Assembly: GCA_039679815.1 (NCBI GenBank)
Contig: JBDKUG010000191.1
Location: 1 to 51,322 of the forward strand
DNA from: Smithella sp.
Lineage (GTDB): Bacteria; Desulfobacterota; Syntrophia; Syntrophales; Smithellaceae
Direction of reading: 5' to 3'
DNA: 51,322 nt
Below the pieces are notes generated by a model. That model did not search any database. It worked only from the letters and a program-made list of their open reading frames with translations, and had not been told where the DNA came from. This document shows, piece by piece, positions 16,600 through 48,722 of this stretch. Every line of letters starts with the position of its first letter. Within the stretch, counting starts at the first letter, position 1. Both the position numbers and the translations under genes were made by a program.

Positions 16600-18034
16600 A
16601 ATTAAACTGGAAAAACTCGATGAAAACAGATGGCTTCTTCCGCAGACCGGCTTGATGCGTGTGCCGGGGATCATCTACGCCAACGACAAAATCCACGATC
16701 TGCTTCAACACGACGAAAGCACCAGACAGGTGGCCAACGTTGCCCATCTACCGGGCATCGTCAATTTCTCGCTGGCCATGCCGGATATTCACTGGGGGTA
16801 CGGTTTTCCCATAGGCGGGGTGGCGGCTTTTGATCTGGACGGGGGCGTAGTGTCGCCGGGCGGCGTGGGTTACGACATTAACTGCGGCTGCCGCCTGATG
16901 GCTACGGGGCTTGCCCTTGACGATATCCGGGGGAAAATAAAGGATCTGACTGCCGCTTTGTATCAGCGCATTCCGACGGGTGTGGGTTCCACAGGCTATG
17001 TCAAGCTCTCCGGTAAAGATCAGAAAAAAGTGCTTGAGGAAGGCGCAAAATGGGCTGTGCGAAACGGTTTCGGATCCCTACAGGACCTGGAAACAACGGA
17101 AGACGGCGGCTGTCTGAACGGTGCGGATCCGGAGCAGGTTTCAGCGCGGGCTCTCGAGCGCGGCAAGCAGCAGCTCGGCACACTGGGTTCCGGCAATCAC
17201 TTTCTGGAAATTGAAGTCGTGCAGGACATTTATGACGAACAAGCGGCCGGCGCGTTTGGGCTGCGCAAGGGGCAGATTGTCGTCATGATCCATAGCGGGT
17301 CGCGGGGGCTGGGCTACCAGATCTGCGATGATTATCTGGCGCTTATGGTGAAGCATCAATCGGAAACCGGCATCGCACTGCCGGACAGGCAGCTGGCCTG
17401 CACCTATCTGGCCTCGCAGCGTGGGAAGAATTATCTGGCGGCCATGGCCTGCGGTGCCAATTACGCCTGGGCCAACCGGCAGATTCTGATGCACCTCACG
17501 CAGGAGGTTTTTGAAAAAACGCTGAGAATTGCGCCGCGTGAACTGGGGATGCGACTGGTCTATGATGTTTGCCATAACATCGCCAAAATTGAGTCGTTCA
17601 AAATTAATGGTGTCGAGAAAAAACTGTGTATTCATCGTAAGGGTGCGACACGGGCTTATCCTGCAGGTCACGAAGCAGTGCCCGCAAGATATAAAAGTGT
17701 CGGCCAGCCCGTGCTGATTCCCGGGGATATGGGAGCTGGTTCTTATATATTAGTGGGTCAGGAAAAAGCCATGCAGGAGACCTTTGGCAGCGCCTGTCAT
17801 GGCGCAGGACGGGTCATGAGCCGAACCCAGGCCATCAAGACCAGCCGGGGCCGTTCCATCAGCCGCGAACTGGCCGACCAAGGTGTTTTGGTGATGGCCG
17901 GCAGCAAAGGAACATTAGGCGAAGAAATGCCGGAAGCCTATAAGAATTTGAACGACGTCGTCCAGGTGGTTCACGATGCGGGAATTGCCCGTAAAGTGGC
18001 AAAACTCAAATCAGTGGCCTGCATAAAAGGTTGA
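16592..18034 (+). CDS. rtcB: RNA 3'-phosphate/5'-OH ligase RtcB
   Basis: 480-aa ORF with ...LPGIVNFSLAMPDIHWGYGFPIGGVAAF...GGVGYDINCG...GSGNHFLEI...HSGSRGLG...GSACHGAGR... Confidence 0.95.
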   Translation: MSEIKLEKLDENRWLLPQTGLMRVPGIIYANDKIHDLLQHDESTRQVANVAHLPGIVNFSLAMPDIHWGYGFPIGGVAAFDLDGGVVSPGGVGYDINCGCRLMATGLALDDIRGKIKDLTAALYQRIPTGVGSTGYVKLSGKDQKKVLEEGAKWAVRNGFGSLQDLETTEDGGCLNGADPEQVSARALERGKQQLGTLGSGNHFLEIEVVQDIYDEQAAGAFGLRKGQIVVMIHSGSRGLGYQICDDYLALMVKHQSETGIALPDRQLACTYLASQRGKNYLAAMACGANYAWANRQILMHLTQEVFEKTLRIAPRELGMRLVYDVCHNIAKIESFKINGVEKKLCIHRKGATRAYPAGHEAVPARYKSVGQPVLIPGDMGAGSYILVGQEKAMQETFGSACHGAGRVMSRTQAIKTSRGRSISRELADQGVLVMAGSKGTLGEEMPEAYKNLNDVVQVVHDAGIARKVAKLKSVACIKG

Positions 18035-18165
18035 CTACCGAAACCGTTATGTTCGATGCTTTAATCCCGCTGCTGCGGGACGAGCGTTAATTCTCCGAAG
18101 CTTGCGGAGATATAATAACGTTCATTTCATACCTCGAAAGCTTGCAGCTAGGTGGTTGATTGAAG

Positions 18166-18341
18166 CAGCCGGATGAGCATACCTTTTGCTCAGCATCCCC
18201 TGCAACTGTGGCTCTAATGCTTATTTCGCGACAGTCGAAGACTCGCCCTGCGGGCTCAAACAGTTCGACTGTCTGATGCTCCATTACGCAAAGAGCCACA
18301 ATGTTTCGGGGATATTCGCTCAAGGTATGCCCATCCGGCTG
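18166..18341. repeat. nested long-hairpin element, copy 1 (candidate structured ncRNA or recombinase-recognised element)
   Basis: The 18-nt outer arms at 18166-18183 and 18324-18341 pair at 17 of 18 positions. Inner perfect stems are 18207-18215/18292-18300 and 18230-18239/18264-18273, with an apical GCCC-TGC-GGGC. It is homologous to 47680-47933 (reverse orientation), with conserved loops and covarying stems. Confidence 0.55.
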
Positions 18342-18433
18342 ATTATTTTAGTTTAATTAAATGTTCCTGTTCGAATTGACTTTTTTACAGGCTCGGCATA
18401 AGAAGACCATATGAATAAAATGCGGAGAACAGC

Positions 18434-47658: not shown

Positions 47659-47957
47659 GCTGGTTCAGTCATGTTCGGGCTGTTGCCCAAACGATATCCC
47701 TTTGAGTGGCCATTGAAAGCGTTTTGTTTCATAACTGAAGGCCTGTGGCCTTCCCGGTAAGGAATATACGAATTATTGCGCTTCGCAAATGCTGCGCGCT
47801 TCCGGTCAAGGCGCAGTGAAAGATCAGTAATGACAACTGTTTGAGCCGCAGGCGAGTTTTGTCATTACCTTTCGCAAGCTTTAGATTTATTCAAAACACT
47901 TTCAGGCGAGCGAAAAGGATATTTGGGCAACAGACCGTGCAACGATTGAACCCGCAA
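47659..47957. repeat. double-hairpin repeat, split copy whose centre is replaced by the nested-hairpin element
   Basis: GCTGGTTCAGTCATGT (47659-47674) and ATTGAACCCGCAA (47945-47957) match the two ends of the 18787-18875 and 48723-48806 units. The interior is different sequence. Confidence 0.5.
47680..47933. repeat. nested long-hairpin element, copy 2 (reverse orientation relative to 18166-18341)
   Basis: The outer arms are CTGTTGCCCAAACGATATCCC (47680-47700) and GGATATTTGGGCAACAG (47917-47933). The inner perfect stem is GTAATGACAA (47827-47836) / TTGTCATTAC (47859-47868). The loop CTGTTTGAGCCGCAGGCGAGT is the reverse complement of the copy-1 loop apart from a paired C/G deletion. Confidence 0.55.
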
Positions 47958-48143: not shown

Positions 48144-48419
48144 TTAAATTCTGGTATTGATGTCTTTGTAGACAGATTTTCGATGCTTGATGCCTAGGAT
48201 CCATACTTCAGACGCCAGCAATTTGAATACAATCCGATAATCGCCAACTCGCAGCTTCCAATAGCCTTTAAGCGACTTACGCAATGGTTCTCCGTAGTCT
48301 TGTGGCGCAGTTTGCAATCTTTCCTCAATTGCCTTGCGGATTCTGTTTCTTGTTTTTTGATCGATCAGCGGTAAATCTTCCGTGTGTACGGCCTGATGAT
48401 AACGCAAAGTGAAAAACAT
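48144..48419 (-). CDS. type II toxin, RelE/ParE superfamily
   Basis: 91-aa ORF with ...RIRKAIEERLQTAPQDYGEPLRKSLKGYWKLRVGDYRIVFKL..SEVWILGIKHRK.VY.. It lies 3 nt downstream of an RHH antitoxin ORF. Confidence 0.8.
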   Translation of the reverse strand: MFFTLRYHQAVHTEDLPLIDQKTRNRIRKAIEERLQTAPQDYGEPLRKSLKGYWKLRVGDYRIVFKLLASEVWILGIKHRKSVYKDINTRI

Positions 48420-48422
48420 AGA

Positions 48423-48650
48423 TTATTTCCAAACGTCTTCGTGTGATAGAGCCGATTTTTTATGGAATGTTTTTATCCGTTTGTCGGCAAGAGCCGCAAG
48501 TGCAATATCTTCACGCAATTCAAGTGCCTCACGAATCAGATCTCGGGCAAGAGTGGACATAGAGACACCTCCATTAGCTGCCAGATCGGACATAGCTTTA
48601 TATAGTGGCGGTTCAACGACAACATTTACCCTGGGGCTTTTTGTAGGCAT
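48423..48650 (-). CDS. type II antitoxin, ribbon-helix-helix (CopG/RelB-like)
   Basis: MPTKSPRVNVVVEPPLYKAMSDLAANGGVSMSTLARDLIREAL... shows a beta-strand then helix-helix pattern. The ATG at 48650 has an AAGGAG RBS; the ORF track extends to 48701. Confidence 0.7.
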   Translation of the reverse strand: MPTKSPRVNVVVEPPLYKAMSDLAANGGVSMSTLARDLIREALELREDIALAALADKRIKTFHKKSALSHEDVWK

Positions 48651-48722
48651 ATTTTTATCTCCTTTGAAAACAAGTGTAACACTTATGATACACCACGTCA
48701 AGGCGAAATAATTTTCTCCGGG

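Follow-up and report, generated by a model that had tools for sequence, protein, structure and literature searches.

Among the described systems closest to the element reported here, the ERIC/IRU, Correia (NEMIS), and QMITE repeats are protein-less and intergenic, measure 100–350 bp, and fold as one long imperfect hairpin, and they are found as insertion polymorphisms at orthologous sites in either orientation. REP/REPIN sequences are likewise hairpins without an adjacent gene, thought to be read as folded single-stranded DNA (ssDNA) by a single-copy enzyme acting in trans (RAYT), and they form inverted doublets and mosaics. The sites ssoA, ssi/Frpo, and RSF1010 ssiA/ssiB are orientation-specific ssDNA hairpins of 150–300 nt with conserved loops or bulges and variable stems, ssiA and ssiB being an inverted pair on opposite strands. 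Each of two loci in the replication-origin region of a metagenome-assembled Smithellaceae genome is a copy of a dispersed, protein-less, mobile, MITE-like hairpin element that has all of the features named for the ERIC, Correia, and QMITE repeats; some members of its family also share terminal inverted repeats and target duplications with them, and its betaproteobacterial composites resemble the inverted doublets and mosaics of REP/REPIN. Neither exact-sequence nor keyword searches of the literature turned up a description of the element, and its apical sequence (the tip) was absent from the checked supplementary sequences of Geobacter-group work on ‘multicopy nucleotide sequences’.

The window (the whole 51,322-nt stretch of Smithella sp. 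DNA that was analysed) includes the genes parAB, dnaA, dnaN, gyrB, gyrA, archease, and rtcB, and its GC skew changes sign at about 6–8 kb. The two copies are solitary, 29 kb apart, and in opposite orientations within one replichore (Table 1). Copy 1 occupies the spacer from rtcB (stop at 18034) to orf104, a conserved 104-aa ORF without a Pfam match, while the neighbours of copy 2 are a radical SAM gene on one side and a parDE-like toxin-antitoxin pair (ParE) on the other. The earlier note had described both loci as one long nested hairpin, with inner perfect stems and a GCCC-TGC-GGGC mini-helix in copy 1 and the second copy at 47680–47933 on the other strand, and a re-check of the sequence bore out this description. 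The outer stem of copy 1 (CAGCCGGATGAGCATACC / GGTATGCCCATCCGGCTG) pairs at 17 of 18 positions, the one mismatch reading A·C on the + strand and G·U on the − strand. As had been claimed, the loops TTTTGCTCAGC / TTTTCGCTCGCC and a CTCAA ahead of the 3′ outer arm are common to the two copies, the stems are unrelated in sequence yet paired, and the mini-helix of copy 2 has lost a C together with its partner G, its tip (ACTCGCCTGCGGCTCAAACAG) being shorter than that of copy 1 by one C–G pair. The loop segment at 18184–18194, one among several ‘TGAGC’ loop motifs, is conserved in the alignments of both the copy1-type and copy2-type subfamilies and sits opposite the segment at 18314–18323 in copy 1. 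The additional stretch in one arm of copy 2 is missing from the Smithella homologues and is predicted to form small hairpins of its own. Sequence homologues of copy 1 are loci of Geobacter/Desulfuromonadales and Acidithiobacillus, and the close homologues of copy 2 are from Smithella MAGs (L023, L072, L104, L110, and L119), plus locus L128.

Table 1. Features of the two window copies and content of the rtcB–orf104 spacer in related genomes
Feature	Position or locus	Probable folded strand	Description	Basis
Copy 1, complete nested hairpin element	18166–18341	−	176 nt; copy1-type subfamily	Sequence, fold energies
Copy 1, outer stem arm	18166–18183	−	Pairs with 18324–18341	Sequence, fold
Copy 1, outer stem partner arm	18324–18341	−	Followed by ATTATTTTAG on the + strand	
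Copy 1, invariant tip	18241–18263	−	Folded strand: CTGTTTGA-GCCC(GCA)GGGC-GAGT	
Copy 1, conserved internal-loop segment	18184–18194	−	TTTTGCTCAGC on the + strand, GCTGAGCAAAA on the folded strand	
Copy 1, conserved internal-loop segment	18314–18323	−	ATTCGCTCAA on the + strand, TTGAGCGAAT on the folded strand	
Copy 2, hairpin element	47680–47933	+	254 nt; copy2-type subfamily	Sequence, folds
Copy 2, invariant tip	47837–47857	+	Folded strand: CTGTTTGA-GCC(GCA)GGC-GAGT; 3-bp mini-helix	
Copy 2, extra stretch in one arm	47735–47805	+	~71 nt	Alignment, fold
rtcB–orf104 spacer	L129, L134–L136		Plain terminator AACAAGGGGTTGCAACCCCTTGTT only, ahead of the orf104 promoter	
rtcB–orf104 spacer	L132 (orf104 88% identical)		Same element as in the window	
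rtcB–orf104 spacer	L127, L133		Unrelated GTCATTCCCGC-type repeat at the same point	
rtcB–orf104 spacer	L130		Different long hairpin	
rtcB–orf104 spacer	L128		L130-type hairpin and a copy2-type member in opposite orientation	

Both copies fold far more stably than expected from their composition. For copy 1, the minimum free energy (MFE) as RNA is −85.8 kcal/mol on the + strand (z = −9.0; −46.2 as DNA) and −95.9 kcal/mol on the − strand (z = −10.5; −51.0 as DNA, z = −9.2); for copy 2, the MFE is −94.4 on the − strand (z = −7.0) and −94.1 on the + strand (z = −5.0). With 200 dinucleotide shuffles per locus, none of the 200 reached the native MFE for either copy (copy 1 on the + strand, copy 2 on the − strand). 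In the window there are exactly two occurrences of the tip, ACTCGCC(C)TGCGG(G)CTCAAACAG, where 0 are expected, and a covariance model of the inner stem and tip matches just the two loci there (52.9 and 40.8 bits). Rfam 15 returned nothing at the gathering threshold for the window, with only chance-level matches for both copies at E ≤ 10, or for 17 diverse loci of the family, in agreement with the earlier note, which recognised no named RNA family in the element. No tRNA or tmRNA genes were found in the window. The noted absence of a transposase was upheld as well, in that the ORFs beside both copies have no reverse transcriptase, transposase, or integrase domain.

The earlier note had called for homologues to be sought and a covariance model to be built, and the outcome was a large family. 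In a collection with one genome per species, the exact tip was found in at least 119 genome stretches, and a slightly relaxed pattern recovered it in at least 120 stretches from metagenomes, human-gut assemblies among them, and in 14 from viruses. Among the matches listed, the carriers belong to the Beta-, Gamma-, and Deltaproteobacteria, Bacteroidota, Rokubacteria, and CPR, with those on the Bacteroidota side including Prolixibacteraceae, Rikenellaceae, Dysgonomonas, Flectobacillus, and Saprospiraceae, and others being Polaromonas, Variovorax, Rhodoferax, Zoogloea, Denitromonas, Acidithiobacillus, Geobacter/Desulfuromonadales, and Smithella; the same matches include no Firmicutes, Actinobacteria, or Alphaproteobacteria. 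Every copy has the tip flanked by mutually pairing arms whose sequence differs between copies, and what members of the superfamily have in common is an apical module of 21–23 nt, all else being different. The covariance model of the inner stem and tip gave 128 matches from 100 sources. Across 93 distinct sequences, the stem is paired in 94.4% of cells, compared to 57.6% for column shuffles and 33–52% for slid partners, and changes on both sides occur at 10 of the 10 inner-stem pairs (451 cells). For the copy1-type subfamily, an alignment of 11 rows (one of them a fragment) from the window, Geobacter-type MAGs, and Acidithiobacillus has compensatory changes at 21 of the 42 pairs of the full hairpin, with conserved internal loops. 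The structural claim is solid because of these pairing statistics, the changes on both sides, and the compensatory pairs of the copy1-type, which also back the earlier view of selection on a folded nucleic acid as opposed to a decaying duplicate. Selection for single-strand folding of the element is well supported.

The strand that folds is probably the complement of the ACTCGCC…CAAACAG strand (the motif strand), which means that copy 1 would fold on the minus strand and copy 2 on the plus strand, as judged from stability, mismatch spectra, tip variants, and C(GNA)G loops. The complement is more stable than the motif strand in 58 of 70 non-redundant copies (mean, −72.2 compared to −65.9 kcal/mol; Wilcoxon p = 3e-8), with copy 1 favouring the − strand and copy 2 giving a tie. 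Isolated stem mismatches on the motif strand are A·C more often than G·U (41 vs 23, p = 0.03) and pyrimidine-pyrimidine more often than purine-purine (65 vs 19); on the complement, the A·C and pyrimidine-pyrimidine mismatches become G·U and purine-purine. All of the pair-breaking mini-helix variants in the tip are C·A on the motif strand, and one lineage passes from GCC/GGC through ACC/GGC to ACC/GGT, via G·U on the complement. Variation in the tip is mostly limited to the middle base of the triloop (GCA, GAA, and GTA on the complement, though two variants read ACA, a change of an outer base), compensatory swaps in the mini-helix, the length of which ranges from 2 to 5 bp, and two loop positions. 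On the complement, the tip reads 5′-YTGTYTGA-(2–5 bp helix, C(GNA)G triloop)-GAGT, with a possible tandem G·A beside the helix; for copy 1, this corresponds to a 4-bp mini-helix with a C(GNA)G triloop and tandem G·A on its flanks. Larger members carry, on the complement, a mini-hairpin CCC(GAA)GGG and a hairpin B with GCGAAGC. Reading the motif strand as UNCG tetraloops suits only some of the loops and fails for the 2-bp tips and hairpin B. For copy 1, the fold of the earlier note stands but its strand probably does not: the + strand had been folded, and because several lines of evidence across the family favour the complement, this was probably the wrong one.

The identity of the loci as a mobile hairpin element is secure. 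The copies are insertions that some orthologous sites have and others lack, which sets them apart from a resident, gene-like locus. The ORF orf104 is well conserved among the Smithellaceae and the rtcB–orf104 synteny is retained in every relative with a readable upstream flank (L127–L130 and L133), while the spacer between the two genes differs in content (Table 1), and the site of copy 1 appears to be a hot spot for palindromic repeats directly downstream of rtcB. None of the genes neighbouring the window copies recurs at other copies. Acidithiobacillus loci have only a ~150-nt element in common and their flanks are unrelated, with the exception of one syntenic pair (L093/L096). Local inverted duplication of flanking DNA was rejected as the source of the arms, since unrelated loci carry the element together with its arms. 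No constant flanking sequence was seen, save for AAGGTG at three Geobacter-type loci, and A- and T-runs border some copies, in the manner of bidirectional terminators.

The architecture of the element varies between lineages. Copies in the Prolixibacteraceae are ~330-bp MITEs with terminal inverted repeats (ATGAATATCCGGTTG…CAACGGATACTCAT) and clear AT-rich target duplications of 8–10 bp. The two arms of each window copy are themselves inverted repeats, as the terminal repeats of a MITE are, though no target duplication is visible for the window copies or the betaproteobacterial composites, the flanks of which tend to be mutually complementary. Betaproteobacterial members measure 550–650 bp, consist of two inverted modules that both face outward, and have ends GGCCGGG…CCCGGCC. 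One such composite is present on the megaplasmid of Ralstonia GMI1000, at 756.6–757.1 kb, and one is inserted in the structural operon of a tailed phage, with the scaffold gene on one side and the portal gene on the other; some hold one or two small cargo ORFs between the modules, none with a Pfam or PADLOC assignment. The centre of Rhodocyclales composites contains GTAG…CTAC doublets. In the searches made, the plasmid-type replicons carrying the element were chromids and megaplasmids only, with no small plasmid among them. An ssDNA-phage origin was rejected, as capsid, portal, and terminase genes mark L007 and the rest of the viral loci as fragments of tailed phages.

No specific protein partner emerged from clustering of the ORFs within 3–4 kb of 119 and then 253 loci. 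The neighbour clusters were generic only (ABC ATPases, RND pumps, and tyrosine recombinases, the last near 7 of 253 loci, about chance expectation), with no recurring transposase or HUH enzyme at those loci and no reverse transcriptase in the clusters, and tblastn with an IS200-type TnpA query found nothing in ~136 loci. Orientation relative to the flanking genes is random (16 co-directional compared to 21), and the motif strand falls on the G-rich strand at 60 loci compared to 41 (p = 0.09), without significant replication bias. At the borders of the element, outside the hairpin, there is no conserved promoter or terminator. The random orientation, the lack of conserved border signals, and the lack of a recurring protein argue against a conventional sRNA gene or a UTR element, the latter being rejected on orientation, and the same points fit a selfish element with a fold that is needed in cis. 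A link to RtcB, as a Y-RNA-like or ligase substrate, was also rejected because no other locus has RtcB, archease, or any other window neighbour and the spacer is empty in relatives.

Our tentative preference is for a cis-acting single-stranded DNA hairpin module with a tip that docks a trans-acting factor. The stems would only need to pair and so be free in sequence, and the invariant tip and the TGAGC-type internal loops would form the docking surface for a factor encoded elsewhere and not beside the element. The relevant form would be folded ssDNA, used in cis while the element is moved or copied, in a mode that may resemble that of attC sites, REP/REPIN, or IS200/IS605 ends. As between DNA and RNA, the balance tips slightly to DNA. 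All three of the recurrent hairpin loops are C(GNA)G on the folded strand, including the exact GCGAAGC, and such loops are reportedly a hallmark of very stable DNA mini-hairpins (Hirao’s work); it is for this signature that we lean to folded ssDNA. The G·U pairs, purine-rich loops, and putative pyrimidine-motif triple helix described below are equally compatible with RNA.

A structured RNA module, with the folded strand transcribed within composites or by read-through, is a serious contender, though on balance we consider it rather unlikely. The fold could then act as a 3′-end, stability, or processing element, as a protein decoy, or even as a small ribozyme, with the invariant tip bound by a conserved host RNA-binding factor. 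The strong covariation includes G·U pairs, the internal loops are purine-rich with possible tandem G·A, and the larger members have a U-rich tract that mirrors the A/G pattern of the adjacent hairpin-B arm. When mirror and direct arrangements were compared on the purine cores only, 15 copies fell into two exact-mirror classes and none into the exact-direct class, which fits a U·A-U triple helix, a feature of RNA stability elements. Because both modules of a composite face outward, any transcript leaving the cargo in either direction ends in the folded strand, which favours an RNA role, and the patchy, multi-copy, cross-phylum distribution is typical for small ribozymes. Against an RNA stand the lack of any Rfam match or conserved border signal, the random orientation of solitary copies relative to neighbouring genes, the placement of copy 1, whose folded strand runs antisense to rtcB and diverges from orf104, and the triloops themselves, which are GNA and not the GNRA or UNCG tetraloops usual in RNAs.

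A further reading, which is improbable, places the element among ordinary palindromic intergenic repeats such as ERIC, Correia, or REP, without a specific partner; the hairpin would then be merely tolerated or serve as a generic transcription barrier, and the tip would be shared through descent and horizontal spread. The location in intergenic spacers near gene ends, one of which also gathers other palindromic repeats, the terminator-like A- and T-runs at some copies, and the MITE features in the Bacteroidota agree with such a repeat. However, the tip is identical across phyla where every stem position has been replaced many times, its variants are confined mostly to the three kinds of change given above, and the strand-asymmetric mismatch spectra would not be expected for a neutral DNA palindrome.

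An attC-like site, or another substrate of integron-integrase or Xer-type tyrosine recombinases, is very improbable: such enzymes are known to act on folded single strands, L053 has a true integron integrase (TIGR02249, 468 bits) with an element fragment placed as a non-coding cassette would be, exactly between two genuine attC sites, L016 has an IntI/Xer-like recombinase of 577 aa between its copies, and the taxa among the matches listed are those where integrons occur, but the base of the hairpin is 5′-GTTG…CAAC-3′ (GCWGYTG…CARCWGC) and not the 5′-RYYYAAC…GTTRRRY-3′ with which the L053 attC sites show their cores, the conserved tip is the part that varies in attC, tyrosine recombinases are near the copies at only the chance-level frequency given above, and both window copies are solitary, far from any integrase, and outside any same-orientation array. 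The fragment in the L053 integron is read as capture, not kinship.

The folded ssDNA module that we prefer and the RNA alternative can each be extended to a broader proposal, which we regard as conceivable but doubtful, that the tip, the TGAGC loops, and the intramolecular triple helix of the larger members define a new class of functional single-stranded nucleic acid. This would be either a folded-ssDNA site for a conserved enzyme, of the host or acting in trans, by which small cargo cassettes pass between chromosomes and phages, or else a structured RNA or ribozyme of a new kind, carried on mobile elements in at least five phyla. The tip is unchanged from gut and sediment Bacteroidota to Betaproteobacteria, Acidithiobacillus, Smithella, Rokubacteria, and CPR while every surrounding pair has been replaced, and this constancy across phyla points to a specific conserved partner that is not yet named. 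Should the partner prove to be a DNA enzyme, the family would represent a new means of transfer for small gene cassettes and non-coding modules, with phage genomes among the destinations; for an RNA-binding factor, or a catalytic fold, it would represent a widespread RNA class absent from Rfam. Because the family is large and easily modelled and has culturable carriers, among them Ralstonia pseudosolanacearum GMI1000, Variovorax paradoxus (CP063167), Acidithiobacillus, and Polaromonas, these options are directly testable. For annotation of the window the practical gain is modest, in that both loci are mobile intergenic insertions outside the rtcB and parDE units.

Compared to the known systems, the element departs from each in a different respect. 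The ERIC, Correia, and QMITE repeats are confined to a genus or family and conserved over their whole sequence, whereas the element conserves only the tip and a few loops and does so across phyla, and its window copies are without the target duplication. A MITE would be expected to share its ends with an autonomous IS, which was not found near the element, nor was a transposase within 3–4 kb of the 119 and then 253 loci. REP sequences are species-specific, unlike a tip that spans phyla; the GTAG head of REP is absent from both window copies, and no RAYT or IS200-like gene was near the copies in the ~136 loci searched with the TnpA query. The PATE derived from IS200/IS605 differ in that the element is a single symmetric hairpin without a TnpA-like match or a fixed flank, and retron msr-msd differs in that the copies adjoin the RtcB, orf104, radical SAM, and ParE ORFs and no reverse transcriptase. 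Single-strand origins reside on plasmids or phages beside replication or transfer genes, whereas the element is chromosomal, dispersed, and MITE-like. A 6S RNA is likewise a rod-like hairpin of ~180 nt with a large central internal loop and sometimes two copies per genome, but it is without an invariant apical sequence, which the element has, and the element has no Rfam 6S match and is insertion-polymorphic, with an empty locus in related Smithellaceae. An attC site is, like the element, a structure-defined and strand-specific ssDNA hairpin with a variable sequence and a G·T-tolerant stem, but it conserves the base of the stem (R''/R' core sites and extrahelical bases) and varies the top, while the element does the reverse. 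Overall, the element behaves as a palindromic MITE-like repeat with a conservation pattern, an invariant tip on stems that are free to change, that is unlike that of ERIC, Correia, or REP.

In larger members of the mobile hairpin-element family, a hairpin of pyrimidine/purine type, such as CTTTCTTTTG-loop-CAAAAGAAAG, precedes a purine tract, with hairpin and tract located 40–150 nt from the almost invariant apical module, or tip (L022, L063, L007, L016, L131 and many other compared loci). In its A/G pattern the tract mirrors the purine arm of the hairpin, and the two co-vary, such that A4GA3 occurs with A3GA4 and vice versa. Judged from sequence, this mirrored, co-varying pattern is a signature of an intramolecular triple helix, which would be of the pyrimidine-motif type on the folded strand. 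No pyrimidine/purine hairpin with a purine tract was seen in the two window copies.

One arm of copy 2 is ~71 nucleotides longer than in its Smithella homologues; the additional stretch, possibly a nested insertion, forms small GC-rich hairpins of its own. On the strand that carries its motif, copy 2 has a ParE/RelE-family toxin ORF immediately upstream, itself preceded by a 92-aa ORF, which probably encodes the antitoxin. The gap that holds copy 1, between rtcB and a conserved 104-aa ORF (orf104), is a hot spot shared by unrelated palindromic repeats in the window and in the orthologous spacers (Table). Repeats of the GTCATTCCCGC...GCGGGAATGAC type are one kind, and L087 and L126 have them nearby as well; a second kind, perhaps distantly related to the hairpin-element family, is a long hairpin with the tip GTA(C/T)...AAAAAGTACGC and with CGCT-type loops in both arms. 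TCTCCG-AAGCTT-GCGGAGA forms a small hairpin upstream of copy 1, where two occurrences of AAGCTTGC also lie (as CGAAGCTTGCGGAG and CGAAAGCTTGCAGC); the interior of copy 2 also contains AAAGCTTGCGAAAGG.

Coordinates of elements, repeats and neighbouring genes in the window and the compared loci
Feature	Location	Strand	Remark
Extra ~71 nt of copy 2	window 47735-47805		
ParE/RelE-family toxin ORF	window 48144-48701	minus	Pfam ParE_toxin, E = 2e-8
rtcB-orf104 spacer	window 18035-18433; L127 3816-4000; L128 3501-4000; L130 3790-4000; L133 2566-2818		
Small hairpin and AAGCTTGC repeats	window 18090-18150		
Complete integron	L053 1255-7020		
ORF-less cassette	L053 2736-3066		
Clustered members	L017 4090-5120	reverse	
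Clustered members	L016 2261-7011; L109 4390-4625		
Module pairs enclosing small ORFs	L079 1300-2560; L074 3030-4170; L113 260-1400; L143 7363-8877; L147 364-1147		
Complementary outer flanks	L010, L128		copy2-type copies
Complementary outer flanks	L038, L043, L063, L118		composites
GTAG-headed palindrome pair	L038, L043, L070, L094		centres
GTAG-headed palindrome pair	L053 2740-2818		

Locus L053 holds a complete integron: its integron integrase scores 468 bits, an attI-like GTTAGGT is present, and its attC sites show RYYYAAC/GTTRRRY cores. One of its cassettes, 330 bp long and without an ORF, is made up of a hairpin-element fragment. Some Bacteroidota loci contain head-to-tail clusters with members a few hundred bases apart, and at L016 copies are separated by a tyrosine recombinase of 577 aa that is IntI/Xer-like and scores 222 bits, short of the integron-integrase cutoff.

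Around the copy2-type copies of L010 and L128 and the composites of L038, L043, L063 and L118, the few bases just beyond the conserved ends vary from copy to copy, yet are mutually complementary (for example TTAACGGG...CCCGTTAA and TCCGGG...CCCGGA), and look as if the centres of short palindromes were insertion targets or as if the stem were extended.

Two inverted modules can also enclose one or two small ORFs, none of which had a Pfam or PADLOC match. Such units sit beside the portal gene in L143 and L147, which come from related tailed phages; their cargo differs, and by analogy they appear similar to mobile ‘moron’ cassettes. At the centre of the Rhodocyclales composites, units of two inverted modules, two GC-rich palindromes with GTAG heads lie in inverted orientation to each other (GTAGGGCGGGTTTCAACCCGCC ... 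GGCGGGTTAAAACCCGCCCTAC), forming a REPIN-like doublet nested within the composite.
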